Origin: Bispira polyomma
Taxonomy: Eukaryota
Assembly (NCBI GenBank): GCA_965649765.1
Contig: OZ287748.1
Location: forward strand, 9,300,001 to 9,364,000
DNA length: 64,000 nucleotides
Direction: 5' to 3'
Positions 5,201 through 51,779 of the stretch are shown here, piece after piece. Below the pieces are notes generated by a model, which made no database searches, was not told the origin of the DNA, and saw only the letters and a list, made by a program, of their open reading frames with translations. A program made the position numbers and the translations under genes. Position 1 is the first letter of the stretch. Each line of letters begins with the position of its first letter.

Positions 5201-5257
5201 TAAAGATCAAGGGTTAAATCGCAGATATATTTAAATTTTAATTTTACACCGCTCTTA

Positions 5258-20065: not shown

Positions 20066-20889
20066 TGACCAGCATTCTACTCTTACCACCTTTCATTCCA
20101 ATATTCATTCCTCTGGTCCATTTTGCAAATACAGTATATAACCTCCAACCTTCAATTATATACAGAAATAGCCTCAATTCTATTTCATGAACTTTCTGTT
20201 ATCCAACATGTAGTTCCTTGCAAGAAGGCTTGATATATCCACCATGTATATACAGTAGAACCTCTATTATCCAAACATTTAATTTTATAGCCACACTTCT
20301 ACTCTCCCAAATTTATATTTTCCTAATGCCTCTTATATTTTATGAACCTTCTAATTTCTGCACAAAGTATTGCTGTCCCTAAATAATAATAATGGGATAT
20401 TTATTTACATGTTCGAATAATGAAGGTTCTACTGTAATTGTATTTGTTTCAAGCTATATAGTTGCCTCATTGCTAATAAAGCCAATTCAGCATTTCGAAT
20501 GTGCATGTCTAGATAGCTGTATGTGTGCTTCAGTTTGGGAGAAAACAAACCACTGAAAGATGAACAAATCAATTATTCACATTTTAACAAATTAGTTGTA
20601 AGAACGTTCAATTATTGTCAAATTATCAATTAATCAAGAAGCTCTGATCAAAACCTTTCAGTGAATACAAAGATTTTCTATGTTAGTGCTTTATATTTAT
20701 TGTTTTAATTTATATTAAACTTTTGAAAGCGGGAGGAAATTGCCGATATTTTGCGAGATTTGGAAATACTCAGTTGTTATGGCTCACACATACCATTAGT
20801 TATCCCGAGTTGGACATGCACACTGAAAATGCAGAATAGGCTAATACAATATGGTTTAAATAAGAGACTGTGTGTGCAGGTTTACTTAC

Positions 20890-22548
20890 TTGTGGCTTCC
20901 ATGTGGAGGTTGGCGCTGACTTGGTCTGGGTAAGCTTGGACTTTTTCCACTTTCTGGAGAAGGTTCTGGTCTGAACTTGCTCATCTGTGGACTGAGACTT
21001 GTTGTGCATAGCTGAAGAAGGGGGAGAAGAATTAGATTCGTACTGGTCCTTAAACGGATGGTTTTTTGTTCGAAACGACCGGTAGCTAAGAAAACCGTAA
21101 TCGTCCTTATCGATATCGTCATCATTCTCGAGCTCCTCCAAGATGTTCGGTGTCGAATTGCTCCGGCCCAGTTTGGGATGATTTATCACCCGAGATTTGA
21201 TGCTCTCCGAGATTGTATGTAATGGAGATTTACTATTGATGGACTGTCTCCTGGTGGGGACAATATCACCACCATTCGAACTAGTCGGGGTGGAGGATCC
21301 AGAATTGTTCGAGACCTGTCGTGTAAAACCAGGAAATGACTCGCTGAGTGGTGTCACTGGTGCTGAGTGGGTGGTAAAGGTTTGGGGGATGGGCTGAGTC
21401 TGTGACAAGGGTGTTGATTGCTTGAGGTAGGCAGCTCTCGCCTGATTCACCTGAATATCACGCTGGGGTAACGTATTCACAGTCTTACTTAACGTATTAT
21501 GTTTCTCCTGCAGCCCTACCAAGTTACTACTACTGCTACTGCTTCTCAACTCTGATTTCCCGCTGTTACTTCCAGTCCTTCCAGCACCAGAACTACTTCC
21601 TGATGGCCCCAGTACACTTCCCGTACTACTTAGCGCCAAAGAATGAGCTAAAAATTCGGGCTCGTTTATCAAATGCAATCCATTGCCTTGGGAACGGAAC
21701 AAGTGGAGAAGGCCAGAGTCGGAACTCTTTCTCAATGGAACAAAGTCTGTTGTTGTCTCCTTGGCTCCTCCCTTTCTAGTCCTGCCCAATGTAGCATACC
21801 CTTCAGGTAGACTACTATTAGCCACTACACTGTAGTCACCACCACTACTATTGGTGCCAGCACTGCTGGGACTCACAGGCATAAGACCCTCGTCTAGACT
21901 CCTCTGGTAGTTACTAGGATTCCAGTAGTTTGAAGAAACTTCACTTTGGCCATCTCTGCTGTTGCCTCTGCCATAATGAGGATCCACCACCATATCCGGT
22001 GAGCTATATTGCCTGAAAGGCTGCAGCGGATGTGACGGCTTAGGGTGGGACATGGAGGCTAGTAAAGAATCCGAGTCCCCACCATATCTCCTCACAGGTT
22101 TACTCTCTACGTCCACATGTCCGTTGGGAATCCTGTGTGACTGATGTATGCCTCCTGTTGTCGTTACTGGTACCCGGGTTCCCGTAGAGTATCTTCTCAT
22201 AGGTGGCGCCACCATGCTACTGTTAAACTTTACATTGTTGTTGTTGTTATAACTGTCATTCTCGTAATGGTACTCAGAAGATGACTGCTGCAGCTGCTGT
22301 AGCCCACCACCATTACCTGAACTACTACTACTGCTATCCGGTAGTTGATGTTGATGCTGATGTTGATGATGCTGGTACAGGTAGGTGTTATAATCCCCAA
22401 CTTGGTGCTGGTGATGATGATGGTCTATATTCATTAGATGCTCATCTATTTCCCACAATGCATCTTGTTTCAGAAGCTTGTTGTTTTTGTAATCTTGTTC
22501 CACTGGCATGTTTTCTTCTTGGCCACTCCAGCTATGTAGCACTGTCAT
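20890..22548 (-). CDS. ARHGAP6: ARHGAP6-like RhoGAP, large first coding exon (553 codons; His/Gln/Ser/Asn-rich, probably disordered N-terminus ending TWKPQ)
   Basis: Long ORF; first ATG at 22548 after an in-frame upstream TGA (22663-22665), alternative ATG at 22509; donor CAA|GTaagt at 20890/20889 is phase 0 and joins GHCTW to give WKPQGHCTW, like ARHGAP6 WKSEGDFTW. Confidence 0.88.
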
Positions 22549-25260
22549 TTCAATCCAAACAGGAAAGGTACTCAAACCTTTTATATATACAAAGTATATT
22601 AAGGCTACTATACACCAAACCTTTTGAAGAGACTTGTCATATATTATCCTATATCTTTTCCTTCACCCATATATATTACTTTACACAATAATAATCCAAT
22701 AGATACATGGTATATGTAATGGCACTGTGACTTGTGCATGCTTCTAAACTTTGTATACCAGTCCAAATATATATGTGGAGGTTTTAAAATAAACAAACTA
22801 TCCAGTGTTCAGTTTAGTAGTTGTAGGTCAACTTCTTTTTCACAATGGTGTTTGAAAGCCGTTGATCTGGTTTATATTGTGTAACTCTATACTTCAGTAT
22901 AGTACATTAGCATTGGACAGGCTAAATTATTCACATATCATAGATGTAAACATTGCAATTGATATACATCCAACTGGGGTAGCTGTTGTTTGCCACACCC
23001 TTTCAACATGCAGAGCAAATATGTAGGCATACTTTTTTCTCCCCAGCCTTTCACTTGTAGAATATAATTTCCTTGAGGAAAAAATCGAAGATTATTATTA
23101 TATACTGGGGGGGGGTAAAAAAGGATGAACCGTCTCCCCATTATAAAAACAAATATAGATTTGTCAAGCAAACACTGTTACTATATTTATAAACACACGG
23201 CCAAGATTGGATATTTTGAATATAAACCTTGTACACACGAATTTACACACACATGTACTATGTAAAATATCCTCAATATTATGCTTTTATACACACACAC
23301 AAGAAAAAAAATAAAATAAAAAATATGTAGTATATGCGAGTGTGTACACATATATAAAACTATCTCAAAAGTAAATTCCACAAACACACACGAAATCCCT
23401 CTCCGTATACTGTCTAAAGTAACACACACAACTATCTATAGCTCTAAACACATACACACATCTAAATAAAGTATGTCGCCTGTACATATCATATATCTAT
23501 CTATCTACATATATATGGATGTGTGCCTATTGACAGTGTATATTTTCTCAGCATTTGACAAGTTGCCAAAATTGTAAAAGCTCTCGGGTTGGTATTTTTT
23601 TTCTATTTGGTTAGTGGTGTGAAAAAAGGTGCCAAATGGAAGAAGGCATTTGATTGGCGGAGAGCGTGCCCCCCCCCCCCCCCCCCCGTCACACAATACT
23701 AAATGGGCCATTACCTTTGTGGTCAGCCAAGCAAGAGGGCAATATACCAACTCTACAAGCCAGTGAATTACATGGCCAGTGTATTAATCCAGTTGGAGAA
23801 AGCTCAAAACCTAGATTTAATACAAACAATAAATCAAGTGGACACTTTTCAGTACGAGAAGGTAGAACATATATATATATATATAAGAGATATATATTAT
23901 GGAATATATATAATATATGAATTCGCACAGAAGTTTATGGTCTTACAAAATAGGTTATAAGAAGAAAATTGAGTAATTCAGTTGTAAATAGATATATTAC
24001 CCTCAGCTTTCAATGTTGAGAAAATTTCTATAGTGTACTAGAAAATATAGACGTAGAATATGATTTTTGTCCAAGAAATGAGTCCCCATTTTACACCTAT
24101 AAATATTTAAATAATTTAAATATATCACACAAAAATTATATACATTACAAACAAAACGAAATTTGTCCAATTATTGTCAGCCTCGGTTTTCATTTAATAG
24201 TAGAATCACTCTATGAGAAATGTATTGTTTACATTTTCAAAATAAAAAGGAATTGTCAAAGTTTTCCACAATTAATTATTGTCAACCTCAGCTTTTTTTT
24301 CATTTCTGCTTTGATCGGTGTATGTCGTTATAAGCAAGAACAACTTCCTCAAATTGTATATTATTATATATTCAATCACATATGTTTGTTACAAGGAAAA
24401 ATTGAAACCAGACAAGATTTTGCCACAGACTAACCAATTACACCCGGCTAATGGCTTTATAATGAAGGACAGGAACAAGTTCAGCAAATGTAAGCCCCCA
24501 GTTCAAAAATGGCACGGCCATTCAGCCAACACTTAATCCCCGCTGTGTGACTTTTTGGCGGTCAGTCAGGGATTAATCATTTCCTTTGATAAGTGTTCTT
24601 TAAACCACTGGCAGATTTGTGAAATGGTCAGATTATAAGGCTTACAACTGGTCATCGTTTTGAACATTAAAAGGGTTACTATACTTGTAAGATGCTACAA
24701 AATCGCATCAATTAAATGTTCCTTATACGAGGACATTTGAGTGAAATTAAAATTGGCGACACGTTTAGTGACAATGCGCTCATACAGTGTTTCATATAAA
24801 AAAATGTAACCGGAAAAAAAGTCTTCATTAGGTGGTTGTAAACGAAAGTTGTTGTCAAAGAAGGTGTAGTGACTTTATAAAAAAACCAAGCCGTATGCAT
24901 TGCTATTAAAGTGTCACCACATTATTTTCTAATGCTACATTATTAGTGGTAGTGGTAGCATTTTTTTTTCTACTTGTATAAAGCCTTTCTCATTTAATGC
25001 AGTTGAATATTGCAAGGTGAAAAAGTTAATATCTATGCTGAGTCTACTATCCCTCGGATTTCTTCTCAGATCTCGGACTTTTGCGGTGATGGATCGCCGC
25101 ATTTCTGATCGGCCCACTAGCCCCCCCCCATCAGACTTCTAATCTAATAAAATTTAATAGCACTTAATCTCCATTAAGGTGAATTCTAAGGCGCATATAG
25201 CCATAATCATATTCAAGTGTCGTAACATCCTTTTCCAGAAGGTGGTCGAATAAAAACTTA

Positions 25261-26659: not shown

Positions 26660-26775
26660 GTGTCACCCACTAGTGGCAAGATACAAATGGAGATTTGTTA
26701 AATGTGAACTATGATAAGTGTCACCCACTAGTGGCAAGATACAAATGGAGATATGTTAAATGTGAACTATGATAA
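26660..26775. repeat. 58-bp direct tandem duplication
   Basis: GTGTCACCCACTAGTGGCAAG...GAACTATGATAA occurs twice with one mismatch. Confidence 0.9.
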
Positions 26776-28084
26776 GTATGTGTAAAATATATTAACATAA
26801 ATATATAGCAGTACTCTATAGGAGAAGGAGCTATTAAAGAGATTTTTACAGTAATTACTACTTACTTAATCAACATCACTAACATTCTATTTCAAAAACA
26901 GTACTATTACCAGTAGATGTGGTTAAATATCAATCAACTTGTTAGAGCCAATTAACCAACAACATCAACAGTCATTTATTGTCTTTCACTTATTTGAAAT
27001 GTCAAATCATAGTAAATAGTAGTGCTATACCTTAAAAATCGCACATATGCGTTGGCCAATGAGTTGGAAGGCTCCAACAAATAGCTATTGTTAGGAAATA
27101 CTAATGGTACTTCGCTATAAAATAAATAGTCAATGATGTGATAAATACTTACTTAATAAAACTCGGGTGCATCTGGTTACTCCCATTTACTCAATTTCTA
27201 GCAGCTTAAAAAGGCAGGAGACAAATGTACACGAACATCCTCGGGATCTCAGAATAAGACACAATATATTCCATTGTTTTTCCCCCCCAAATAAAGAATT
27301 AAGCGTCACATAGTGTATCCACAACGATTTGCAACCTTTTTTTTTCCCCCCGACAAGAAAATGTGTGTAAAATTCCAATTGAAACACAAGTCTTAGCTAT
27401 AACTAATTCAAATTATAACTAAGTCAAGTGAATTATACTGTTACTTGGGTGCTTCTAACTAATATGACACTCATCATATAAAAACTTGACCATTTGTTTT
27501 CTTTTGTTTTTTTTTAACCAAGATATATTTTCCTCCTTTTTGTTTGTTTTGCCATATGCAAGCAAGTCTGGCATGAATATTAAAACTTCCTGGAGTGTAT
27601 GCTATATATACATTGATATTATTACATATTCCCACAGAAACAAAAATAAAGTACACACAGTCTGTGTTGCATTGTTATTAGTATTATCATCAAAGATGGG
27701 GATAAATGCAACATGTTGACTCCATTTTGTAGCTACAACATAGAAGCAAAGGAGTAAGTCAAAAAAACACGGGCAAAAGCTTTCTAGTGTTGTTGTTATA
27801 ACACTGGCCAGTTATGCTCTAGAAGCTTGAACAGAAAAGTTTTGTCTACTTGTATATATAACACTCACACACTTACTCACCAACCAATGTCTTACCATGT
27901 GCTTTTGCTCTATAGCTGCTTTTAATCTTGGAGGAGGAGGAGAAGAAAGTTGTGTATTTTTGTGAGTATTTCTGTGTTTGTAGCCTCAACAAGGCCTAGA
28001 TTCCTGTTGCTATTTTTGTATATTTGTGTGAGGGAGGGTTTTATTACACATGTCATAAATGATGTACATTGTAGTTAATGTTAA

Positions 28085-29355
28085 TGTCACAGGCCAAATT
28101 AAAATCCAGGCGGATTTTAAATCCGCCTAGGCGAGATTAAAATTCTAATCTCGCCTAGGCGAAATCAAAATTTTAATCTCGCCTAGGCAGATTTACAATC
28201 TGTCGAGACCAAATTAAAATTTTGATTTCACCTAGGCGGAATTAAAATTTCCAAGTTTGTTTTGTAGAATTTTAATCTCGCCTAGGCGGATTTAAAATCT
28301 GCCTAGACCAAATTAAAATTTTGATTTCGCCTAGGCGGATTTAAAATCCAACTTGGCAAGACTAAAATAGGGGAAATTAAAATTTTAGATTGAGGCAAAT
28401 TTAATTATTTCATTTATGTATGCAGTAAAAGTATGGCTAAAAACCTTAAAATTGAACTTATTTTATTTCTTTTTATAGCACTTTCTATTCATGGTTCGAA
28501 GCATTAATTCATACATGGAATATTATAGTAACTGCATTAATTAAAATTCTATATGCCTGGGTAAAATTTAAACTTGACCACACCAATAGTTTTTTTGTTT
28601 TGTGTACGCTACACCCCTACACTACATCAAAATCCAATGTCTTTTACTAGCTTAATATGTATTATTAGTGTAATATTTCCTTCTTAGGGGTAGTACATGG
28701 GTGTCAAAAGGTTTGGAATTGTATTTTTTGGTAAAGTACTCAAGTATACAACAGTGAAAAAATCACATGCTTTACAAAGGGTTAAATATATAATCATTCA
28801 TGCCTTTTCAGAAACTTCATAGTGGTAATCCCCAAAGACTTTCTTGGTGCACTGCTCTTTCATATGTGCTCAGGAATAAATTGGTAGCACTTGGTAGTGT
28901 CTGAATTAATGTTTTAAACCATGAATGAAAAGTGCTTTATAAAGAAATTATGTTAATAATTAATGCAATTACTATATTCCATGTATGAATTAATGTTTTA
29001 AACCATGAATGCAAAGTGCTTTATAAAACTGCATACATATAAATGAAAATAATTAAAATTTCCCTCAATCTAAAATTTTAATTCCCCCTATTTTAATCTC
29101 GCCTAGGCGGATTTAAAATCTGCCTAGGCAAAATCAAAATTTTAATTTGGTCTAGGCAGATTTTAAATCCGCCTAGGCGAGATTAAAATTCTACAAGACA
29201 AACTTGGAGATTTTAATTCTGCCTAGGCGAAATCAAAATTTTAATTTGGTCTAGGCGGATTTTAAATCCGCCTAGGCGAGATTAAAATTTTGATTTCGCC
29301 TAGGCGAGATTAGAATTTTAATCTCGCCTAGGCGGATTTAATTTGGCCTGTGACA
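28085..29355. mobile_element. Foldback-type non-autonomous DNA transposon with ~450-bp inverted arms
   Basis: Termini TGTCACAGGCCAAATTAAA / TTTAATTTGGCCTGTGACA; TAA on both flanks (28082-28084, 29356-29358); arms carry arrays of CGCCTAGGCG. Confidence 0.88.
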
Positions 29356-32123: not shown

Positions 32124-33124
32124 TTAAGATTTACAATCAATCAAAGATACATTTGACACAGTTTCTCTTTGTCCAGAAGTAGGCATTATATATTAAAGTA
32201 GGACGCATTAATATTGGCTAGACTTGATATATAAGGCCATGTATCCGTAACAAAATTTCCTTCGTCAATATATAGATATAAAACTAGATAAAATATAGAT
32301 AAAAAAATCAAAGTATACCTATACAAGTAGTATTTGATAACCACATCCTATACCTGAATACATCATGATTGTAAACCAACTGAGCTACTTCTAATATTCT
32401 CATAATGGACTCGGGCATGTGTTCACACTTGGCATTTGAAACTGCATGGATAAATATACAGGCATTCGATAGAAATGTGCATGTTTTACAGATTCTGTAT
32501 AGTAATTAATAATAATTATTCATTTGATATAGTGCATTATGAACATCACTGTTATCTAATGCACTTTGACATTATTACCCCAGCCTGGGTTCTTCCACTT
32601 GTTGACCAAATTGTTCAATCTCAGCACCCTCAGGAAGCATACTAGCCGTGCTGCACATACAGAGCACCAGAGAGGTACAAGATCACTCGTATCCAAAGTC
32701 TGACGCTATAACCACTTCCACACAGACCATATATATAGCAATTAAGTAGCTATTTCAGTCATGTTTAATAAAAAGAGGTTATTGGTTATCATATAAACTA
32801 AATTCTAAAGGCCATTTTGTAAAACTTTCACTTGTATATTGTAGATATCATCATGCATCTCACAACTATAGAGTGAAGATACACTTGAAACCTCCTAGTC
32901 ACCCAATTGACATTTAAACCACTGCTCCTGGGGCCCTATGTATCAAAAATCTGAAACTAAATGCTTTGTGGGGTCACAAGTTTTTTTCCTTTATATGGGA
33001 AAAATTTGCACTCACACAAAAAGACTCAAAATCTACCCTGATAAGTGGAAATCCTGCTTAAGTAGAGCTATTTCTCAGTAGAGGTATTTCTCCTAGTTCC
33101 TCGAGGTTTGACTTCAAAATGGGG

Positions 33125-34239
33125 TTTAAATGTATTTAGATTTCCTTGTGAATGGAAATAACTGTAAGACGCCATTTTTTTTCAAAACAGAGTCGTTTCC
33201 GGAACAATATCATCCGTTAAGCAACGTCACGGAACGAATGCACCAGAGATCATCACTTTAGCATTACCTTCTACCACGTTTCCAAACAGTCCATGACGTC
33301 ACACACACTTAGCTCCAGCACGTGTAGGTGTGACTAGGCTTCAAGACCTGATCACAAGTCCGTACTGTTCAGGGGTAAACAAAGAATATCAAGGAGTAAA
33401 TAAATGGCGTCTTTCCAGATGATTTTAAAAAGGCTATTGTCACTCCTTTAATAAAAAAACCTTCTCTTCCAAAGGCTGGCTTGAAAAATTACTGTCCTGT
33501 CTCAGGCCTTTGCTATATCTCTAAGTTGGTAGAACGCGTGGTTGCCTTACAGATCAAACAACATGTTGACGTCAGCAATCTGTCCAATAAGTATCAGTCA
33601 GCGTACAAAAGTGGTCATTCTACTGAGACTGCACTTCTCTGCATCAAAAATGATGTTCATACATCTTTATCCAAAGGTATGCCTACTGCCTTAGTACTGC
33701 TGGATCTGTCAGCAGCCTTTGATACTATTGATCACAAAGTTCTTCTTGAGTGCCTATCGTCTTGGTTCGGTATCAGCGGTATGGCGCTAAAGTGGTTCAC
33801 GGCATATTTGTCTGATAGATTCCAATCAGTCAAACTTGGCAATATCTTATCCGACCCAACATGGTTAAAATTTGGTGTTCCCCAAGGTTCCGTCCTGGGT
33901 CCCATTTTGTTTTCCATGTACACCACTCCACTCAGCAAGATTATTGCTGCATACAAAAACATAAACTTTCACTTCTATGCTGATGATACCCAACTGTACA
34001 TCCACCTTACACCTGACTCTGCCCAGGCAGCTTTCACTTCCTTACAGAACTGCCTTGTTGATGTACAACACTGGATGGCAGCAAATAAACTCAAGCTGAA
34101 CCCTGAGAAGACTGAGTTTATTTTGTTTGGCTCCAAATCGCAACGGGAAAAATTGTCCAGCTGTCTTCCACTTGACATTCTTGGTAGCAGGTTTTTTTTA
34201 AATGTATTTAGATTTCCTTGTGAATGGAAATAACTGTAA
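33125..34239. other. Composite templated insertion (33168-34196) flanked by a 43-bp direct duplication
   Basis: 33125-33167 = 34197-34239; 33183-33397 is the reverse complement of 34685-34899; 33400-34197 is a direct copy of 36436-37233. Confidence 0.92.
33400..34197 (+). pseudogene. Internal reverse-transcriptase fragment duplicated from the LINE at 36436-37233
   Basis: ORF 33481-34233 has LDLSAAFD, GVPQGSVLGP and YADD; near-identical to the LINE 3036 bp downstream; no LINE 3' end. Confidence 0.9.
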
Positions 34240-34740
34240 TAACCTATTACTATCAATTGTAATAGGGCTTTCAGGGAGGGACTTAAATATAAAGTCAGAT
34301 TTGAGATATCTATCTTTTTTTTCGCACAATTAAATATAGGTCATATTTTAAGATTATTGAGTATTTTTAAGACTTTTGGCAAATACAGACCTGACACCCC
34401 GTAAAGAACTGTCTGTAGTATTAGTTATTATAGTGTGGTGAATTCTGGATTCTGTCTGCATTCTTGTTTTCTTGGCCTCTTCATGTGTTGTTTTAATTAT
34501 TGCACTCATTTAGAGTTTTTAACTAACATCCCTATATTGCTCCTTTCATGAGGACATTATGATACAGTAAAAGTTCCCCCTTCTCTAAAAAAAATAAAAA
34601 TAGAAGTTTACGGAGACTCTTATATAATGCATCTTTTATAAAACTTTAGCCGACACATAGGGAGAGAGGATATCCCCATAATAAACTCCTTGATATTCTC
34701 TGTTTACCCCTGAACAGTACGGACTTGTGATCAGGTCTTG

Positions 34741-35342
34741 AAGCCTAGTCACACCTACACGTGCTGGAGCTAAGTGTGTGTGACGTCATGGACTGTTTGG
34801 AAACGTGGTAGAAGGTAATGCTAAAGTGATGATCTCTGGTGCATTCGTTCCGTGACGTTGCTTAACGGATGATATTGTTCCGGAAACGACTCTGTTTTGT
34901 CTGCTGCGACAATTGTTTTAAACTGTTTGAAACAATAGTGGCACAGCTCCGGTTTCTCCATGTTTCTCTATTTGTCCCGGAACGTTTCCGAAAATAGCTC
35001 TACATAGTAGTAGGTAGTGAGGAAGTGCCAGTAGGTAGTGAGATCGTTTCCACTCGTCTCCGTTAGTTGAGAAATGTTTCACTAAGTAGCAGAAGGCAGC
35101 AAAACGCACCAGTAAGTAGCAGTATAGTTGATCTACGTAGTAGAAGGTGGTGATATCCTACCAGTAAAGTGTTCGATTTTTGCCCCCGCTTTGTATGTAT
35201 AAATAACAACATCGTCACAAAATGTCACAATTGACTACCCCTTTACGGAAATGACATCCCTTGACACAAAACTACCATGTTTTTAGTGTATATTGCTTCG
35301 GTACGTTGGGGGACGTTGACACGTGTAGGTGTGACCAGGCCA
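34741..35342. mobile_element. ~600-bp MITE, PIF/Harbinger-like (family copy 2)
   Basis: TIRs AAGCCTAGTCACACCTACACGTG / CACGTGTAGGTGTGACCAGGCCA; colinear with 5258-5853. Confidence 0.85.
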
Positions 35343-35344
35343 TT

Positions 35345-35590
35345 AGGTCCTTGGTGGAGTGTCGAGGTGCGACTCTCTGGCCTTCCAGCAGTTGGGGGGT
35401 CAAGTCTCACCCAACCATTGCCATATATGTGGGAAAGTTAACAGTATACCAGCTGAATGCTGGTGGTTTTTAGTTGCAAAAATCTTGACCGACTACCCCT
35501 GTAGTTTACTTTCCGCCACGAATAAACTGCCTCCCGAGATGAAAAACACTAGTATTGAAAGTGATGTTCAACTGAAAACAAAATAGAAAT
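35345..35590 (+). mobile_element. tRNA-derived SINE (Meta/MESC-like 3' region)
   Basis: Shares ATGTGGGAAAGTT and a TTGAAAGTGATGTTCAAC A-rich end with copies at ~18240-18430, ~30570-30780, ~7585-7795 (-) and 52120-52276. Confidence 0.55.
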
Positions 35591-35619
35591 TGTAAGGATG
35601 AATTTGCAGACCCAGGGTT

Positions 35620-35970
35620 GTGAGATTAGGGTAAATGAAATATGACATTTGTTATAGTTCACTTTTATACAACACACACAAGGTCAAATGTACTTCCTCA
35701 TGGGCAGCCACTATGGGCCCTGAGGCTTGCTTGAGGATGACACCATTTATCAACGTCCCCAAGAATCTTTAATCTACCACTGGAGATAGTACTCTATGAC
35801 AGAGGACCACCATTTTAAGTAGGTTATCTAAGCCACTAGGCAAACATTTGTTCACATCTTTCCCGAGGATATCATCCCCAACAATTAAAACTAGCGGTTG
35901 GTATTGGGAATAGAACTGAGGACCTTCTGATCATCAGACCAACACCCTAACCACTAGACCACAGGAGGTC
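35620..35970 (-). mobile_element. tRNA-derived SINE with L2-like tail
   Basis: Reverse complement of the family at ~54915-55175; partial copy at ~61380-61580. Confidence 0.65.
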
Positions 35971-36234
35971 GCCAATGCATAGACACACCCCAGCCTTTTA
36001 CTTTTAAGTGCTGTTTCCATACACGTGTGCATGTCATCCATATACGTCAAACTCGCATACACATCAGGCAAGATCTTCCATTTTATGGTTGATCCTCGTA
36101 TTTTCGGCCTACCTCATATTTTCGGCCAATCACGTTTTTGTTCTTAAATAGAAGTTAAATTATTGTCTATAAACGATCAAATGTCTTTCCCAATGTTAGA
36201 CTTATTCAAGTCAACCAGTTTACATTTTACATTA

Positions 36235-38036
36235 GCTGCCCCAAATGCTCCTTTACCAACAGCTCCACCAACCGTCTTCAACTGTTTCTCCACAGTAACT
36301 GTTGATGAAGTCAGGAAAATTATACTGGTATCACCCGTAAAATCTTGCTTGCTAGATCTGTGGCCCACATTCCTTGTCAAAGAATGTATTGACATTTTAT
36401 TGCCCTCAATCACAAAACTTATCAACCTCTCGTTGATAAATGGTGTCTTTCCAGATGATTTTAAAAAGGCTATTGTCACTCCTTTAATAAAAAAACCTTC
36501 TCTTCCAAAGGCTGGCTTGAAAAATTACTGTCCTGTCTCAGGCCTTTGCTATATCTCTAAGTTGGTAGAACGCGTGGTTGCCTTACAGATCAAACAACAT
36601 GTTGACGTCAGCAATCTGTCCAATAAGTATCAGTCAGCGTACAAAAGTGGTCATTCTACTGAGACTGCACTTCTCTGCATCAAAAATGATGTTCATACAT
36701 CTTTATCCAAAGGTATGCCTACTGCCTTAGTACTGCTGGATCTGTCAGCAGCCTTTGATACTATTGATCACAAAGTTCTTCTTGAGTGCCTATCGTCTTG
36801 GTTCGGTATCAGCGGTATGGCGCTAAAGTGGTTCACGGCATATTTGTCTGATAGATTCCAATCAGTCAAACTTGGCAATATCTTATCCGACCCAACATGG
36901 TTAAAATTTGGTGTTCCCCAAGGTTCCGTCCTGGGTCCCATTTTGTTTTCCATGTACACCACTCCACTCAGCAAGATTATTGCTGCATACAAAAACATAA
37001 ACTTTCACTTCTATGCTGATGATACCCAACTGTACATCCACCTTACACCTGACTCTGCCCAGGCAGCTTTCACTTCCTTACAGAACTGCCTTGTTGATGT
37101 ACAACACTGGATGGCAGCAAATAAACCCAAGCTGAACCCTGAGAAGACTGAGTTTATTTTGTTTGGCTCCAAATCGCAACGGGAAAAATTGTCCAGCTGT
37201 TTTCCACTTGACATTCTTGGTAGCAGGTTTTTTCCAGCTGACAAAGTACGAAACCTGGGTGTGGTGTTCGACTCTGAATTCTCCTTCTCTAACCATGTCG
37301 CATCGGTGTGTAGATCATGTTTTGTTGGCCTCCGTGATTTCAGGCGGATTCAACGCTATCTTTCCAAATCCACTGCAATCACTGTTGCCAATGCTTTGGT
37401 CAGCAGCAGGCTTGATTACTGCAACTCTCTGTTCCGTTCCTTATCTCGTAGTGATCTCAGACGCCTTCAGAATATCCAACACTCATTGGCACGTATTGTG
37501 ACCAAAACTTCTAAATTTTCCCACATTACTCCTGTACTCAAGTCACTGCACTGGCTCCCAATAAAATATCGTGTTGCTTTCAAAATAGCAACAATAATAT
37601 ATAAATTTCTAAATTCTTGATTACCCACTTATTTTAGCCCCCATCTATCCAAATATACATGCTCAGTCAGGACAAGGCGCAGTAACCCTGATAAATTATA
37701 CCTTAACATTCCCACTTTCGACCCTCGCATCCACAAATCCAAAGTTCAATTCAATCACTGCCTAGCTCATGATGGCCCCCTCATTTGGAACAGCCTACCT
37801 GATCATGTTCGCCTGGCTCAAACTTTCTCCTCTTTCAGGAGTAAGCTGAAGGCCTATCTTTTTGAACAGACTTTTCCACCTTAGCCGTCGCAACCATTTA
37901 CGGTAGTCTCCCTGGTTACGACTTCCATCCGCCCACTATTTTTGATTTTCGATTAACGTTTTGGGTTTGTTGCACCTTAGAATTTGTTGTACAAAGATTA
38001 AGCGCTATAAAAGTACGACTAGATTAGATTAGATTA
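36235..38036 (+). mobile_element. 5'-truncated L2/CR1-clade LINE: ORF2 reverse transcriptase and C-terminus, 3' UTR, (AGATT)n tail
   Basis: RT motifs QSAY..GHSTETAL, LDLSAAFD, GVPQGSVLGP, YADD, RNLG, SRLDYCN, LHWLP; premature TGA at 37618-37620, frame continues ...WNSLP...FRSKLKAYLF to TAG 37884; GATTAAGCGCTATAAAAGT then AGATTAGATTAGATT; no endonuclease or ORF1. Confidence 0.95.
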
Positions 38037-40254
38037 TCAGTTTAATTTAAAACTTAATTATAAAAAATAGCCTGAAAAGCAATTGAAACCATAGGTGTTA
38101 ATTATTGGCTTAATAGGCCGAAAATAGGGTGAACCTTCATATAACAGTTTTTAAAGGAATGACATTAGAAGCTCTATTAACCCCAAACTTCAATTATACA
38201 ATAATCCCTCTTCTACTTTATGAAGCTTCTATGAGCCAAACGAAATCATGTCTCCAACATGTTCAAATAATAAAGGTTATACTGTATTGTTTAGTATCTT
38301 AAAATCACAAATTCATTGCACAGAATATATATATATTTATATATTTTGTGTAACTTCCGCTGTCTATACCCATTTAAAAATTGCTTCAGGACAGTTTTTT
38401 GGTGACATGTAGGCGTGTATGAAAACAAGGACATAAGGTGTATTTTTACTTAACAATTTTGTCAAGCCGTCATTAAAACAAAGTTTGGTTGAACAAAAAA
38501 TATTTTTTATTTTAAAGAACTGATCATCAAAAAACTTTATATAAAAATATAGCATAAAATCATAGTGATTAAAATTGTTGGAAGTCAGCAATAAGAAGAT
38601 TATCCTCTTAAACTTTGACCATTTCATTTAAACTCATTAAGGAAATTCAATTAAAACTCACTTGTGGAAATAAAATCTACTTTAGAGAATTACTTTTTTA
38701 TATAGATTTTACAAGGAAGATATATACATATATGTACAAATACTGAAAAAAATGGAAACTGGATTCTGACAACAAACAACTTGAAATATCTTTGCACTGA
38801 CAAAAATTATAATACTAGAAAGAAAAGTTTCTATCAGTGTCAGAATACAAACTTATGCATTCCAGCTTCCATTTTTCCAATACACTTCAATCTGTAAGAG
38901 AGACCACCTCTATGAACCAATCACTTATCTATGAAGACCTCTCTTTCAAATACATTTTACTAAATTGTTTTCTCCATCTCCAACATATATAGTTAGAGCG
39001 GTTTATTGTATACAAAATCAACTCGACACAAAATAGCTTTGCATTGAGTTGCAAAATTTCAAAATTACTGGAACATTTTAAGGTTTGACTTGAAGTGGTT
39101 CGGCTGATATATATGAAACTGTAAATACAAAAACACATTCTGTTAGTCCTATATGCCCAATATCCATACATAATTTGGTTTACTTATATGACTAGCCTGT
39201 CTTAATAACTTTTTCATAAGTGTAGCAAATGTTGGAGGTATAATATTGTTTCCATTAACACAGAGTCTAATGTTATATAACTCGTCAACTTTTTGCATAA
39301 CATACCTTTTCGACTATTATCTAAAATGACTGGTTTTACCAGATATATAAATTATACATCATAAAAACTAAAACCAAAATGCTTAAAGCAAAACAACAAA
39401 AGGATAAAATGATACCACTTGCCCAACTGTGGCTTTCTATTGCAGACACGAGTCGTATACAAAAGCAAAAGAACCACAATTCTAACATACTGATGGACAG
39501 ATTAAACTTTAGCTCGACTAAAATACTGTGCAAATGAAAATTTTAGCTGGAAGAGAAGTTTCACTAATAACCCAAGATTAATGTCCAACCATCTTGGTTT
39601 ATCCCGGCTTACTAACCTTGGACGACCGTAAAATAACCTTGTCTGACCTTCGAGAACCATGGATAAAAAACCCTGGTGATCCAAGCCAATCTGGCTTTTA
39701 CGACGACAAATTTTGGGTAAGCTCAAAACTTCCATGGATCTACCATGGTTGAATTGTGTCTGTGATTAACTGTAATCCAAAATAGTACAACCGTCCCCCC
39801 CCCTGGTACCACAGTAAGTTCACCCTTGCAATCACTCGTTAACCCTCACTGGCCATGACTGACACACACTTGGGGATAAACCCTGCTAACCCGTCTGTTA
39901 CCGTGGCAACACTGGGAAAGCTTTTGCCTCCCCTTCGTGCAAACCCTACCTCTATGTCTCACAACCATGGGAAACCCTTGGTTTAGCCACGGCACAAAAC
40001 CGTAATGATACTTTGCAGTGTTCAAGACAAAGTTTAGCAGTCAATTAGTAATAGTACATGTACACTATTTGATAAAGATCAAATTTTCTCCAACTAAGTA
40101 GGAACCGGATTGTATTGTAGGCTATGTCTGAGTTCGTACAAAAATCACAGATTGTATCACAACATTTCAATCACTCTTTAGATAAATGGATGAAAGCATG
40201 TGCTAAAAGAATTAACAAGTTGTTAGTGCTGCTACTAGATCACACAAACTACAG

Positions 40255-42808: not shown

Positions 42809-43315
42809 TAGCAGTTCATAGAATGTTATATTAAAGGTAAAATGAGCTTAATTTTACTCTTTAAATGTATATTCCCTGTCTCACAAAATGGTCTCAGATA
42901 ATTTGACTTTAATCACTGCCTAAAGTGTCAATTATTTTCCATCCCACAGCAGGTCAATCAGTGGAGTTAGACATAGATGTTATGTAACAAGTATTGAAAA
43001 ATTATACTTTAGTTTGATTGAGTATACAAAAACTACTAAACCAATTTATATGAAAGTTGGAATGGGCCAAGGAATAATCTGGAGCTGATCCAGGTATAAA
43101 GGTGGATCCAAAATTTGTTTTGCACTTTTTGTCACTGTGGCACTCTTTACTGTCAATTTTGCTTCCTCTTCCTGACAGAAAATGTGATAGTATTGCTTGG
43201 TCTTCTCTCATGATAAAAGTTAAACAGATCCATTAATTGGGTAATTTTCCTGTTCTATTTAAGATACCTAAAATAGCCTCTCTTTGAGATTTCCTTCCAG
43301 TACACTGTACACTAC

Positions 43316-43457
43316 CTGATGTTAACCCTCCATGGCTCTCTGTTTAAGTTCCGCTCTTTGGTGTTGTACAGAAATGTGCAGTCTGAGCCCAGTGTCTCTT
43401 GTCCGCCTGTCAATAAACGCACTGGCACTGTCTCCATACCGACCAGCTGCTGCAAAC
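43316..43457 (-). CDS. Four-repeat protein, exon 8 ((G)LQQLVGMETVPVRLLTGGQETLGSDCTFLYNTKERNLNREPWRVNI(R))
   Basis: ctcctttatAG acceptor, GTagtg donor; 142 nt, phases 1/2. Confidence 0.85.
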
Positions 43458-44434
43458 CTATAAAGGAGACAATAATACACAGAGCTACAGATCAAGATCT
43501 TTAACTCCTGCAATAAAGCAAATAAATCCCATTAAATGTACCCCAGCAGTGGCCATGTGTAGGTAACAGTTGTGGCAAATTTTTAGATCAATTGGTTTAA
43601 TACTCGTACACTGATAGACCCTCTTGTTATGTAAAGCAAATTGGGAGAGCAAGATTTTGTTCGGATAATAGAATAATATTGATAAACTAAAGGAGACATA
43701 TAAGTATAAAACAATAATTTAAGATATATTTGGCAGAGCAAAAAAATATGTGTCCATAAAATCAATTATTTGGACAATAAAAGAAATAGGGATAATGAAA
43801 GTTATGAAGAAAAAACAGGAGGCTTGACTTTTTTGTGGGTGTCATAAAAGTGACCATTACCATTGGCCCAAAAGCAATATCCTAGTAAATATGAAAACAT
43901 TACAAGTAATACTTTTTGAAATATGACAGAAAATATTGGAACTTTACCCTATTTAAACCTTGAACCCAAGGTCAAAGGTCAAATTTGAAAATGATATAGC
44001 CTAGTTTTACTGATTGTTACTCTTCCTTGTTTATTTACAACGATGTTGTTTTAAATAGGAAAAAAAGTTACATATGCTTTTCTGCAAAATGAAGAGAAGA
44101 AAAATCACTTATAGTCAAATAAATGTATTTTCTGGTCACTGCAGGTGTCATCATGGTTTTGACATACAGAAGACCTGAGTTTGATTCAAGGCATCAACAG
44201 ATAAAAAGTAACTGGAATGGCCACTTCAAATGGTGGTTGATGGTCATGACATAACTTTCCCTAGCTGCCTGCAATAGACCTAGCGTTGTTGAGATAAATG
44301 GTCACCCACAACCCCTACGGCTTCTGTTTGGGGCATGTCAGTTATTGATGTACAGTGGCTGTATTTAAAATGATTTATTCATGCTTAGATACCAATGAAA
44401 TGGAGAAACCAAACTGAGGATGTTCACTAATGAC

Positions 44435-44710
44435 ACTACAATATGCTGACATAACCAATATTCCGTATCCATCTATCCATGTGTTCTTGTAGTTGACCCA
44501 GGTCTATACGTATAAAACAATATTGTACAATAAACTACAAAATGCTGACATTACCAATCTTCTGTATCCAGCTGTTAACCCTCTCTTGTAGCTGACTCCG
44601 GTCTATACATATAAAAACAATACAATATTGTACAATAAACCACAAAATGCTGCCATTACCAATCTTCTGTATCCAGCTGTTAACCCTCTCTTGTAGCTGA
44701 CCCAGGTCCT
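44435..44710 (-). repeat. Three ~105-bp copies of the exon 7 3' end plus donor site
   Basis: CAGCTACAAGAGAGGGTTAACAGCTGGATACAGAAGATTG|GTAATG ends at 44660 and 44555; a degenerate copy lies near 44456. Confidence 0.9.
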
Positions 44711-44959
44711 CATAACTTCCCTCTTGTAACTCATCTTCCCCTGCAAAGTTCATCTCCCGAGGCAGTTTCATGGGCGAGAACATTTTGTAGGCCAGTTTGA
44801 TTCGTTCACTGTCAGATTTCTCCGCTCCAGTGGGGATCTGTTTCATGTAAACGACTCTCATGACCTGGATATACTCTGTTCGACTCTGGTGTAAAGAGCC
44901 ATAGGCAGAGCCGTGTTCTGTATAGTTACAGCGTAATGCTATGTCTGCATCACTGGTGT
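44660..44959 (-). CDS. Four-repeat protein, exon 7 ((D)TSDADIALRCNY...SYEDLGQLQERVNSWIQKI)
   Basis: gttcttcAG acceptor, GTaatg donor; 300 nt, phases 1/1; open frame in ORF 44535-44981. Confidence 0.9.
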
Positions 44960-45108
44960 CTGAAGAACAACATACACACATTGAGAAAAAGAAAATGTAG
45001 ACATTGAGAAATGTAATGCAGACATTGAAGAAGGAAACACCGGTTTTGCCTATGCTTGTCTAAATTTTTTCTTATTTTGTTTGTGTTATATATACACAGG
45101 TATCTAAA

Positions 45109-45233
45109 TACAGTAGAACCTCTATTATCTGACCCTCCATTATGCAAATATTCAATTTTACGAACCCAGCATCACTTTCCCCAAAGTAAGTTCTTACTTC
45201 CCCAAGATGTCCGTAAAATAGAGGTTCTACTGT
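45109..45233. mobile_element. Tc1/mariner-like MITE, representative of a high-copy family
   Basis: TA|CAGTAGAACCTCTATT ... AATAGAGGTTCTACTG|TA; relatives near 385-560, 13732-13920, 18470-18665, 20251-20435, 30048-30222, 30298-30490, 41282-41470, 41835-41989, 49515-49717, 50991-51130, 53790-54085 and 60277. Confidence 0.8.
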
Positions 45234-45287
45234 ACCATAAAACTGTCAAACCATCTGCCCCCTTGACAGATGACCTGCGTAACCTAC

Positions 45288-45446
45288 CTTTTTTGTACTT
45301 GACAAAGACGGACTGTATGTTTAACATCTTGAGGCCCACATTCTGGTAGATCCACCTAGCCGCTCTCTTCCAAACGTCACCGTACGTCTCATAGCCCTGG
45401 TTGTGTGGGGTGCGCTGGGTGAGCTCGGGAAAGAAATCCTGTATGC
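45288..45446 (-). CDS. Four-repeat protein, exon 6 ((G)IQDFFPELTQRTPHNQGYETYGDVWKRAARWIYQNVGLKMLNIQSVFVKYKK)
   Basis: ttttcccatcAG acceptor, GTaggt donor; 159 nt, phases 1/1. Confidence 0.9.
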
Positions 45447-45458
45447 CTGATGGGAAAA

Positions 45459-45900
45459 TACAGTAAAAAACCTCCATTATCCAACCATGGTGGGAAAGGA
45501 ACATGTTGTTTGGACATTTGGATAACAGAACTTGGACTTAAAATGTAAGATTTTGTTGGAATATACAGTATATCACCCATTATCCAACCATGTTGGGAGA
45601 ACAAGATTTTGTTTGGATAACAGAATTTGGACATAAAATGTAAGAATTTTATCAGAATATACGGTAGCATCTCCATTATCCAAATATTTTTAATAAGACA
45701 AGATTTTGTTAGGATGATAGAATTTGGACTTAAAATGTCAGATTTTGTTGGAATATACAGTACAACCTCCATCATCTGAACATTTTGGGAAAGCAAGATT
45801 TTGTTTGAATAATAGAACTTTGGGACTTTTGTTAGAATATACAGTAGAATCTTCATTATCCAAACATGTTGAGAGAGCAAGATTTTGTGTGGATAATAAT
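45459..45900. repeat. Five tandem ~85-105-bp units derived from a Tc1/mariner MITE left end
   Basis: TACAGTA(G)AACCTCCATTATCCAA-like starts at ~45459, 45564, 45660, 45755 and 45840. Confidence 0.8.
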
Positions 45901-46611
45901 ATCTGTTTTACAGTACCTAACACTACCTTATCTCAAACAAATCTCTCACCTTCCTGAGGCAAAAAGAGTTATTTTGGCAAATTTCACCATAGAGCTCTGG
46001 ATGACTCGGCTTGTGACAACTCGGCTTAAACAGCCAAGCACAGTTGAAGAGCCTGCCAGGAGTCACATATAGTGTTCAACTGGAGCTATCAAGAGTTGAC
46101 AGAGGCCGCGGTGCCCTAGTGGTTAGCAAGCATTGCGCTTCACAATCATTGGTCTCTCACATCTGGGAACGGCTGGCTTCGGACACATCAATTTAATTGG
46201 CGTATTGGTTACACGCAACCCGCCCAATAAATGTGCAGAGTAAATATTTGAATACAATATAAAGTACAAGACGATCAAAGATTGTAATAATTCCCCGCCG
46301 TCGACATGTGTTTAACCACTTACTCTGTGGTATGTTAAGGACGTCGAAGTATGTCAATGAAAGTATGTGATGTAAGAGTTTGTGTGGGAAAGAAGAAGGC
46401 CTTTTTACCCTATTAGGTTGAAACTCGGCCTGAAATCGCTCTGTCTCTTACCATATCCGAGATATTCGACATTTTACGGAAAAAAAAACATATTGGGTCT
46501 TGTGACGTCAACATTCAATTGCACTACCTGAAAGTGATAAAATGTTTCCTTTTTAATAAAGCAACCTCCATACCAAATGGGGTTAATTATGAATTAAGAA
46601 TGTAGACCGAC

Positions 46612-46773
46612 CCAGTTCAGGAGACCGCCCCGGTTTGAGATCAGTTCTGTGGACATGAAAGACACGCAGGAAGAAGTTGAAGCTCTTGTCTTTCTGAGGG
46701 TCTTCTTTCCAGAAACACTCGTCGGCCTCTATTTCACTGGGGATGGGAAGGGTCTCCAGACGCATCACACGAC
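46612..46773 (-). CDS. Four-repeat protein, exon 5 ((G)RVMRLETLPIPSEIEADECFWKEDPQKDKSFNFFLRVFHVHRTDLKPGRSPEL)
   Basis: cgtcatttAG acceptor, GTcggt donor; 162 nt, phases 1/1. Confidence 0.88.
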
Positions 46774-47199
46774 CTAAATGACGGAACAAGTATAGCGATA
46801 GAATACAAGTTCTAATGGAAAATAAAACATTAACTAACTCTTAGATAAGTCAGATTTGGTTCAAAATTCACGTTACCAAATTTAAGGCTGTAGTCACTCA
46901 ACAGCTCTCCTACCTTATTTCCCTTCTCGCTTACAGTAAACCTGGAGAGAGGCAACAGACTCTCTGTTTCCGACTTCCTGTTTGTCCCATGTATCAGAAA
47001 TGGCCATTAAAAATGAAAACAACTAAATGACAAAATGTACATAGCGGCTATTCAGTGGGTAATATAGAAGATAATATTTTAAAATATTTGACGACTATTC
47101 GGAGCCATTACGAATAATTAATGGCAACTAGGCGACTTTTTTGTCAGCCATGACGTCCCTATTATGTGAGAGATAAGAAGGTGTTGTAGTCAATAATAC

Positions 47200-47369
47200 C
47201 TGTGGAGGAGGAGTTCTTGACTAAGTCAGCATTGACTGTGGACAGTATGGACTTGATGGTGTCGCCTTTGGCCTTGACACAGTAGTTCTTGTAGGTCAAA
47301 GTGGCCACAGTAGCAGGACTAGAGGACTTACTTTCATAAAACGTGTCATCTGTGGTGTAGTACCAGATT
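47200..47369 (-). CDS. Four-repeat protein, exon 4 ((R)IWYYTTDD...TLTYKNYCVKAKGDTIKSILSTVNADLVKNSSST)
   Basis: ctttcAG acceptor, GTatta donor; 170 nt, phases 2/1. Confidence 0.9.
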
Positions 47370-48279
47370 CTGAAAGTGAGCAAAAGAAATCAAGAATATA
47401 TAAACTACTTTTAATTAAAGAGGATTGTTATGGGGGGGGGGGGGGCTAAGGGTATCACACAGCATTATAGGACTGAGAGGGCTTAAAAAAAGGGCCTTAC
47501 AGAGCGACGGCTACACAACACGACACTACAGTATAAACAAAATAAGAGTGGTCCATGGACCACATCGCCAGATAACTGACAATTTGCATCGATTATCGCC
47601 CACACGAACTCGATGCATCGAAATCCCAATTTTAAACAAAATAAAATGCTGATACATACCTAAACTCTACTATATTTTATGTTTTCTTAAAATATAAATT
47701 TAAATTTAGGTGTAAAGTGAACATTAAGTTACCTTTTTATCGATCTATTATTTTGTCCTATGCGACAATGTGAATTTGGGCACATACTAAAATTCGGCCA
47801 ACAGGGGTGCCTTCTAAAACTTGGAGCTCTTGGGAGGTAGCTCCGTACAGAGGTAAAATCGCCTAAATCTTGAGAGGTAGCTTGAAAATCGCCTTAATCT
47901 TGGGAGGTAATTTAAAATAAACTTTTATAAGAAATTAATTTTGTATAAATGTATTATGACATGCATCCCAATAAATAACCAATGTATTGTTATATTTATT
48001 CTTTATTCGATTTGGTGATTATAATATAATCTAGGAATTAATTTTGTGTTAATGTATTATTATATGTATTATTATATTTATTTTTTATTCAATTTGGGAA
48101 TTATATAATATACAGTCTAGGAATTATTTTTTTATATTTATTCTCCACAAATATTTGTTTTATGACCTACCAAAATCCACCCAGAAATATAGGTAGTTTT
48201 CAAGCTCCTAAGATATAGGCCATTTTATAGCTACCTCCCAAGATTCAGGCGATTTTCCTGTATGAATATTAATATACCA

Positions 48280-49230
48280 GGTATATGAATAACTACAAAA
48301 TACAGAAACATATGTCCAAGATATAGGAGACAAAAAAAGAATTAAAAATTTTGACTTACATGAATCACTACAAAACACAAAAACATATGAGCAGGGCGTT
48401 TTTTTTTTCAAGCTATAGATTGGAGACAAAAAAACAATAATTTTGACTTGCATGAAGCACTGCAATACAAAAAAACCTACGAGTAGGGCGATTTTGTCCC
48501 AGATATAGGTTGGAAACAGAAAACAATTAATTTTCATTTGTATGAAGAGCTACCTGTATACCGAGAAAACATATGACCAGGGCAATTTTGTGTAAGTTGA
48601 AGATTAAAGACATTAAATATAAATACAGCCATTTAATCATATTCAAAAAACTTCAATATTTCACAAAAAGATATGAGCAGGGCGAGACAAGAAACAATAA
48701 TTTTGACTTGCATGAATCACTGGAAAACAAAAACACATACGAGTCGGGCAATTTTGTCCAAGATATAGGTTGGAGACAGAAAACAATTAATTTTGATTTG
48801 TAAGAAGAGCTACCTGTTTACCATGAAAACATATGACCAAGGCAATTTTGTCTAAGTCGAAGGTTGAAGACAATAAATATTGATACAGCCATTTAATAAT
48901 ATTAAAAAACTTCTATACTTCACAAAAACATATGAGCAGGGCGATTTTGTCCAAGATATAGGTTGGGGACAAAGAACAATTGATAATTTTGAATGGCATG
49001 AATCACTACAAAACACAAAAACATGAGTTGGGTGATTTTGTCCAAGATATAGGTTGGAGACAAAAAACACATAACTACAAAACACAAAAACCTATGATTA
49101 GGGTGATTTTGTCTAAGTTACAGGTTGGAGACAGAAAACAATAAATTTTGATTTGTTTGAGCAGCTACCTGTTTACCATGAAAACATATGACCAGGGCAA
49201 TTTTGTCTAAGTTAAAAGTTGAAGACAAAA
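48280..49230. repeat. Complex higher-order tandem repeat, possibly internal to a larger non-autonomous element (~47540-49480)
   Basis: Recurring CATGAATCACTACAAAACACAAAAACATATGAGCAGGGCGATTTTGTCCAAGATATAGGTTGGAGACA subunits with a ~300-bp superperiod. Confidence 0.75.
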
Positions 49231-50740
49231 AAAGAATTTCTTTTTGTTAAAATTGCTAAAATAAAAAACAATTAGATTCACACCAAGTTTTATTCTACTA
49301 TCTCAAGCAATATTCATTGTAGCTTAAAACTATTGAAAAGCGCAAAATATTACCTTTCTAATGATACCAAAATGAAAATTATATGTGAAGTATAAATATA
49401 TATATGACCATTTAGGCAAATTTTCGGGAAATAAAGGAAGTGTTGCGGGAATGTTGAATGTTTGAGCTTCTTGTTGTAATAAAGGGTTTAAGGGTGCAAA
49501 CTTTCCGCAGTGTATACAGTAGAACCTCTATTATCTGAACATCTTAGAAAACTAGTTTTAATAAAGGGTTTAAGGGTAAACACTGCCTGCACTCTATACA
49601 GTAGAACCTCTATTATCTGAGCATCTTGGAAAAGTGAAAATATGTTTGAGAGAGTGAAATTAAGTTCATACAACTAATTTTGGATATTAGAAGCTTGGAT
49701 AATAGAGGTTCTACTGCATATGGTATATTACATGGAAATTATCACTAGAAGAACTTTTCACAAGTATAAAATTGACAAATTTATAGCAATTCAATCTTTA
49801 ATCAATTCACACTGTAGGATGTCATTTTTTTTCATTAAAAGAATGTTACAAATTAAATTTTTTTTACTGTGAATCATTACTTTATCCCAAACGTATGACC
49901 TGAACTATCATTGTATTTAGAAATGTGTGCCCCGTGACAACCTCTACTTACATATATGTAGTTAGTATTTAATCAGCTGTGCAAAGTTACGGAGCCCCTT
50001 TTAGGAGATACAGATTCTGGTTTATACCAGTTAAATCATTATAACAATATAATCTCATTCCCACAAATTAATCATCTTGTTTGCACACGATAATCTTGTT
50101 ATATACAAGATGTTCTTCTTATATAATGAGATTACCTTATAATACCAAGATAAATGATGTAAACAAATGGTTTTTTTCCTAAATGGGGCTCCATACATGA
50201 ACTGCGAGAAGTACTAGTCAGTAAATATTTGTAGTTTGGGTTCACAAGCCTGCAACTAGGACCATAAACCAATAAGAACAGGACTTTAACTGGTCATCAA
50301 ATCCACTGACTAAAGTGACATCTTGCTAAAAATGGTGACGAAACTCGCTGGTGATTAAAGTTATGTCAAAGTTACATCCCCAAAAAACTGTGACCTACTT
50401 TAAGCTTCTGTGACTGCAATTCTTTGACGTTAATATTTTTTGGACTTTTTAATTGATGAAAGTGACGGTGACAATAGTTAGGCTCAATAAAAACTTATGA
50501 CCTACCTTTTGTCTTAGTTATATACAAGATGTTCCTCTTATAATGAGATTACCTTATAATCCAAAGATAAATGGTGTAGAGAAATGTTCATTTCCTAAAA
50601 GGGGCTCAATATAAAGCTGTAAGAACTACTATTCAGTTAATATTTTTAGTAAATTAGTCTAACTTAGTTTGTCGTTGAGGTGACAAGTGATAAAAGTGAC
50701 AGTGACGAAAGAAACATTCTCCAACAAATTTGTGACCTAC

Positions 50741-50911
50741 CTTAATCCTCTGTAGTACTTTGTCTTTTTCTCAGCATTCATACTCTTCATGAGGATGCCG
50801 TTGTCTGTGAAGATAGGACGCTCCACTGTAGACCAGAGGACAGACTCACAAGTGAACAGACGGGCAAAGCTGTTCTCTTTAAGCCAATCATTGACTCGTT
50901 CTATGACAGTT
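50741..50911 (-). CDS. Four-repeat protein, exon 3 ((R)TVIERVNDWLKENSFARLFTCESVLW...KYYRGL(R))
   Basis: cccccttcAG acceptor, GTaggt donor; 171 nt, phases 2/2. Confidence 0.9.
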
Positions 50912-51777: not shown

Positions 51778-51779
51778 CT

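Follow-up and report, generated by a model that had tools for sequence, protein, structure and literature searches.

The window analysed here is one continuous stretch of 64,000 nt, and the event with which we are concerned lies between two minus-strand coding regions, at 20800-22662 and at ~43.3-51.8 kb. The first, a low-complexity frame of 620 codons in which Ser, His and Gln are abundant, is likely a large exon; Pfam gave no match to it, and a search among longer proteins gave no homologue. The second (43270-51800, minus strand) is a spliced gene, with matches to unnamed homologues in six exons or more; its family is uncharacterised, measures ~450-570 aa and has domains that are repeated internally. 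Upstream of its first matched exon is a tandem repeat array (51730-52600) in which a GVPVIPG-like motif, found N-terminally in a homologue too, occurs six times in a reading frame; the array is possibly an amplified piece of the exon start. Two-copy tandem duplications occur at 26660-26777 (58 bp, the pair 98% alike), 49473-49633 (82 bp), 33061-33092 (16 bp) and 56121-56154 (17 bp), small duplications of such size recurring in the window. Palindromic arrays with periods of 28, 49 and 99 bp occupy 28105-28426 and 29028-29341 in inverted orientation (93% alike over 314 nt), and 1433-1684 consists of six 42-bp units, 96% alike and open in one frame. The minus strands of 35633-35965 and 32624-32730 resemble what we take, from an A/B-box pattern, to be tRNA-derived SINE heads; neither of these SINE-like repeats gave a tRNA or Rfam match.

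Comparison of the window against itself resolved a patch of 1029 nt, with two neighbouring stretches as its source, between two plus-strand copies of a 43-bp target duplication (repeat A, 33125-33167 and 34197-34239; 43/43 identical). From left to right, the patch comprises a linker (33166-33177, minus strand) that is an inverted copy of LINE positions 36438-36449 and the exact reverse complement of 33402-33413; a run of eight T (33175-33182), the donor having no T run beyond 34899; an inverted 215-nt copy (33183-33397; 214/215) of 34685-34899, made up of 51 nt of flank and the left 164 nt of a MITE-like repeat; a 2-nt filler (33398-33399) apparent from the junction alignment; a direct 798-nt copy (33400-34197; 795/798) of LINE positions 36436-37233; and, at the right junction, a second T8 (34192-34199) where a LINE T6 meets a target T3. 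The duplication and both copies had been proposed by a sequence-only reading of this DNA and all three were recovered here, while its estimate of about four substitutions in ~1 kb came to exactly four in 1013 nt: one in the 215-nt piece (33382/34700) and three in the 798-nt piece (33408/36444, 34091/37127 and 34165/37201). An open frame of 277 aa runs through the 798-nt copy, with RVT_1 at residues 24-254 (Pfam PF00078, E 5e-33); the domain is almost whole, and the frame has neither the endonuclease nor the C-terminal part. No sign of function was seen for the patch.

Both donors lie on the plus strand and to the right of the patch, donor 1 (34685-34899) at 446-660 nt and donor 2 (36436-37233) at 2197-2994 nt from the target, with a gap of 1537 nt between them. 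Donor 1 begins in a flank (34685-34735) that has no second match within the window and continues into the MITE-like repeat (34736-35347), which carries 21-nt terminal inverted arms at 34743-34763 and 35320-35340 and has two further copies in the window, at 5253-5857 and 59211-59713. Contigs of single-copy depth span 34210-34770. Donor 2 is part of a plus-strand, 5'-truncated LINE (36225-38037) with a (TAGAT)n tail near 38020-38036 and a 7-nt flanking repeat, an element that we presume from its motifs to be of the L2/CR1 type. It keeps its 3' end and has a single in-frame stop at 37618-37620, and the T6 at the end of donor 2 (37228-37233) is the longest T run within it. This LINE interrupts another repeat (36018-36222 / 38038-38228), and paralogous contigs join 36218 to 38035, representing the LINE's own empty site. 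Likely older fragments are the short frames at 56153-56389 and 63367-63627, which are similar to the C-terminus of this LINE type.

To characterise the donor, contigs (Logan) of four public runs (X1, X6, X7 and X8; runs X2-X5, with shares of 0.05-0.09, were left out) were compared over 32400-38400, a comparison dominated by repeat paralogues and with 40 variant sites among the matches listed. The LINE family is young, two X1 family contigs together showing 16 differences in 1437 nt (7 and 9 each from the local LINE); at eight of these sites within the copied interval the patch keeps the local letter. In X6, X7 and X8, at least 99% of family depth differs from the locus at 36515, 36825, 36871, 37173 and 37221, and 94-98% at 36529, so that six locus-private letters were counted in all; 36575 was weaker (only 83-89% private), and 36846 was dropped as two thirds of family depth shares it. 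Because the copy shares at least six letters that are absent from nearly all family copies, the donor is, on the evidence of these letters, this locus's own LINE copy and flank. The sequence-only reading had reached the same view from the unique flank (34685-34735), to which the locus-private LINE letters are now added. The homologue, instead of the same chromosome, may have served as the template.

Three of the four substitutions have a direction, that at 34700 being not polarisable. At 36444 and 37127 it is the copy that agrees with the family, the donor having mutated, which upholds the earlier impression that the copy is ancestral at two sites; at 37201 it is the donor that has the family letter and the copy that has changed. 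Divergence between copy and donor is 4/1013, or 0.39% (Poisson range 0.11-1.0%), so that the event, provided the private letters arose at this site, would date from roughly the last 15-20% of the LINE copy's existence.

Bases shared at the junctions number 2, 0, 1 and 1-3 nt, with fillers of 2 nt and 5 nt. The linker differs from LINE 36438-36449 by one mismatch, at 36444, where it has the older C; its first two bases (AA) are common to repeat A, and its 10-nt core occurs once per strand in the 64 kb. It had previously been seen as a copy of the internal junction. The exact reverse complementarity stands, though we prefer to see in the linker a third templated piece, taken from the LINE in its older state. 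In the adjoining T8 (33175-33182), up to three T would be templated by the AAA at 36438-36440, and at least five would be extra, from slippage or untemplated addition. At the middle join stands TAAA TAAA, apparently LINE letters copied a second time after a slip. A GGTTT microhomology once proposed for the right junction proved to be out of register, 33123-33124 mismatching 34195-34196: of the T8 there, against T6 in the LINE and T3 in the target, only 1-3 T are shared, and the run can be assembled from the donor T6 and the target T3. A single 8-mer was the only inverted repeat found across the target that could explain nicks.

The inner breakpoint coincides with a predicted plus-strand hairpin (36419-36439; perfect 8-bp stem, 5-nt loop), the only perfect stem of at least 8 bp in 36225-37990 (1766 nt), although it was noticed after the fact among about five breakpoints. 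Both copied strands end (36436-36441) in or at its 3' arm, each with apparent slippage at that point, and 36432-36439 was predicted to be paired in every frame folded. Perfect stems of this 8-bp type occur about once per kilobase across the window. By folding energy the hairpin ranks in the lowest 3-6% of 30-nt windows, and the long tract traversed 17-44 windows of lower folding energy. A second feature of this region is a 17/17 inverted match between LINE positions 36431-36447 and 35739-35755 (minus strand, inside another repeat family), one of two such partner sites for the 1750 LINE 17-mers (4/3000 simulations). With the older C at 36444 this match is 16/17, so the change in the donor turned a chance 16/17 match into a perfect one; the change is explained most simply by CpG decay, and copying from the partner arm may also have produced it. 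As a cause of the event, the long-range 17-nt stem was set aside as an oddity (present in one folding frame, absent in two others). Folding that would bring 36438 near 34899 was not found, 46-54% of upstream positions being equally close.

Taken together, the 1-kb patch was probably left by the repair of a chromosome break whose two ends both copied one neighbouring strand. Templates of local DNA, whether copied from two ends or serially, are probable overall. Within this, we give about half of our confidence to a repair-mediated duplication for which a staggered break supplied two 3' ends, each priming on the plus strand of nearby DNA. Two nicks 43 nt apart would leave the 3' overhangs, and 43-nt overhangs from such paired nicks would explain the 43-bp duplication; breaks with 43-nt 3' overhangs are described as giving tandem duplications in mouse ES cells (PMC8355091). 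The bottom-strand end (AAA) would pair with the T6 at 37228-37233, as the right junction suggests, and copy 798 nt leftwards to 36436, where the predicted hairpin would pause it. The top-strand end (AA) would prime on the same strand at 36448-36449, run 8-11 nt into the same hairpin, stutter to give T8, and then jump 1.5 kb upstream to 34899 and copy 215 nt to 34685. After a slip of 2 nt the two new strands would pair over 1-2 nt and be joined, and the gaps would be filled. Read as two broken ends, all three tracts derive from the plus strand; use of one strand would arise by chance in 1 of 4 cases and on its own lends the reading weak support. The linker priming site and the end of the long tract lie within 14 nt of each other, a meeting that by our own arithmetic has a chance of about 1% (397 TT sites in 3797 nt) and that copying from two ends explains better than serial copying does. 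Pairing of 2, 0, 1 and 1-3 nt at the junctions would need a single-stranded plus template, while the strand laid bare by resection of the right arm would be the minus strand. The letters establish the pieces with their donors and orientation, the junction sequences and the direction of three substitutions; the steps and their order are our inference, as serial switching on one strand yields an identical product.

The sequence-only reading had indeed favoured that serial path, describing a recent repair scar made by serial template switching. The young, local and templated scar holds; a serial order on one strand is possible and comes second to the two-ended one. In that account (FoSTeS/MMBIR), a single nascent strand at a stalled fork makes four switches, leaving the target for 36449 and then 34899, both in inverted orientation, going on to 36436 in direct orientation and returning to the target 43 nt early, or follows the bottom-strand mirror of this path. 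We regard it as doubtful. Its product matches the observed one exactly, and with a fork halted at the hairpin both strands near 36440 would be accessible; set against this, it calls for two independent landings within 14 nt (~1%), unless a stalled bubble is assumed, and for zero microhomology at one junction, where 80% of junctions in one set of PMC8421209 have 2-12 bp. Several nearby templates, copying in both orientations and return to the original template are features in common with MMBIR/FoSTeS events as described in that paper, which reports germline accumulation of such templated insertions; here, however, the microhomology is shorter (0-3 nt), the tracts are longer and two pieces meet at one donor point.

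RNA-templated repair in cis appears improbable. On this reading the two overhangs of a break that already existed would have primed reverse transcription of a plus-strand read-through MITE-LINE transcript, the enzyme being either a repair polymerase or the reverse transcriptase of a LINE, in the manner of 'twin priming and 5' switching'. Much of the anatomy nonetheless fits it. The layout matches twin priming with 5' switching: the second primer sits near the end of the first copy and leaves a short internal duplication, and an upstream transfer on the same template strand follows (36449->36438 and 34899->34685, against 37233->36436). All pieces come from the LINE sense strand, on which the T8 becomes an A8 that closes the 215-nt piece on its 3' side, resembling a short tail. 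The ratio of forward to inverted sequence is ~3.5, against an average of 2.6 (10.1101/2024.08.27.596794), the LINE family is young and this LINE copy retains its 3' end. On the other side, the primed end has neither (TAGAT)n nor poly(A), the primer is A-rich and internal, the donor lies 0.45-3 kb from the target so that the insertion adjoins its own source, the LINE is 5'-truncated, and the neighbouring exons are on the minus strand; no plus-strand host gene was seen around the event. The eight public runs listed by a search of DNA kind included none recorded as RNA. Splicing was rejected as the cause of the 36438-34899 jump (no AG acceptor at 36420-36445), as was polyadenylation at 34899, the 45 nt upstream of which contain none of 12 signal hexamers.

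The earlier claim that the RT core was duplicated without retrotransposition therefore needs dividing. It stands for canonical TPRT: the patch is not an ordinary LINE insertion because it has no 3' tail and a 43-bp duplication, against 7 nt around this LINE. Set beside a canonical L2/CR1 insertion, the tail is absent at the primed end, the copy stops at 37233 and the duplication is 43 bp where ~3-5 bp is expected. Beyond the canonical form the claim may not hold, the layout being equal to that of twin priming with 5' switching. For L2/CR1 elements, target duplications are reported to peak at 3-5 bp, and PMC4245944 gives ZfL2-1 as lacking 5' inversions, an absence attributed there to a short overhang; if so, a 43-nt overhang would lift that bar. 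Twin priming with 5' switching accounted for 20 of 3,598 L1 insertions (10.1101/2024.08.27.596794), and inner breakpoints of twin priming are usually 1-10 bp apart (PMC11702581). Common to the L1 cases as set out in these two papers and to the present patch are a target duplication, a brief inverted segment where the inversion begins, accompanied by a little internally duplicated sequence, upstream same-strand transfer, a longer forward piece and end-joined new strands. The present patch differs in having no poly(A) and no T-rich primer, with an A-rich end on an internal T6; in its non-L1 element, a template that includes non-LINE flank and an insertion beside its own source; and in a duplication of 43 bp as against 12-18 bp (10-20 bp being expected of the L1 class). 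No twin-priming layout with the donor beside its own target was found in the literature searched. At donor distances of this kind, marks of retrotransposition were absent in 39/39 proximal cases of PMC2671141, which speaks against an RNA template.

An assembly or library chimera is very improbable. No contig bridging a junction was found among the matches listed (32 of 102,711 pieces, 15 of 366 joints), which leans towards an artefact although a missing contig is no proof. Contigs also run unbroken through 34701-34770 in X6, X7 and X8, and X6 has one that passes 34899 as well; junction branches, had the graph retained them, should have interrupted these contigs, which therefore count against the allele. 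One X7 contig departs from the reference at 34197 with 78 non-fitting letters and is empty-site-like. We did not accept it as the empty allele, the 43-nt repeat being longer than the word length of contig assembly (which we take to be 31), so that 31-mers cannot phase it. Graph cleaning near deep repeats, or collapse of repeats, may account for both the unbroken and the empty-type contigs. Pointing the other way, and as indirect support, one X6 contig begins at 34210 and one X8 contig at 34197, the exact 31-mer graph branch points out of and into the duplicated repeat A, which favours a real duplication. Since the unique contigs were identical to the window, the runs and the window may share a source. 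The low probability that we give to an artefact rests on the four substitutions, of which three are polarised and in both directions, and on the linker, which has the copy's older C where the present donor does not; in addition, four joins that return to the starting point would make no simple chimera.

Transposition of the patch as a unit, a mobile chimeric element built of a MITE end and an RT core, would suit the direct repeat on both sides and the RT domain inside, but is scarcely credible for a sequence that holds 51 nt of local flank of single-copy depth together with locus-private letters, is present as a single copy in the window, and has no endonuclease, tail or second terminal arm. 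A 16-base scan of metagenome contigs for the left junction gave 83 loci, none of which grows into true similarity (longest match 34 nt at 82%), and we regard all of them as chance matches.

Among described classes of mutation, this event appears to be of a known kind, and analogy places it closest to chimeric proximal repair-mediated duplications, which Pace, Sen, Batzer and Feschotte (2009; PMC2671141) explain by both 3' ends invading and re-annealing. In that study 824/1136 donors were within 5 kb, 5/20 chimeras had both donors within 3.5 kb, and 6/39 proximal cases carried a target duplication. The patch resembles the class in an insertion of at least 50 bp with donors within 5 kb (here 1013 nt, from 446-2994 nt away), in two donors within 3.5 kb of each other, in the target duplication, in microhomology or filler at the junctions and in one identifiable donor locus. 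It is longer, however (1013 nt against at most 619 bp), and has a longer duplication (43 bp against 4-21 nt), T8 runs at two junctions where the 39 proximal cases are without a poly(A/T) tract, a third short piece and a genome that is probably invertebrate; its donors are transposable elements, whereas the pipeline of PMC2671141 excluded repeat donors. The 43-nt 3' overhangs proposed here are like those of paired-nick duplications, which in PMC8355091 come without a kilobase patch. Insertions by polymerase theta, with templates that are typically <10 bp long and no more than 20 bp distant from the breakpoint, are matched by the 2-nt slip and the linker, both templated near the internal join, and not by the 215- and 798-nt tracts, which are far longer (PMC11541566).

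The reading from RNA, if true, would represent natural, germline RNA-templated break repair in cis, that is, twin priming with 5' switching at an RNA hairpin, outside mammals and without L1, a proposition that we consider unlikely. Twin priming would then be tied to long 3' overhangs and not to L1, and some proximal 'DNA repair' duplications would be RNA copies. More generally, the patch is a young structural mutation of unusually readable anatomy, and it raises the question of whether local, duplication-flanked patches use one donor strand, a hairpin as meeting point and the transcribed strand; such regularities would separate two-ended from serial synthesis, and DNA from RNA templates. In the present case, nearly the whole RT domain was duplicated without normal retrotransposition, and such copies can therefore inflate counts of recent LINE insertions.
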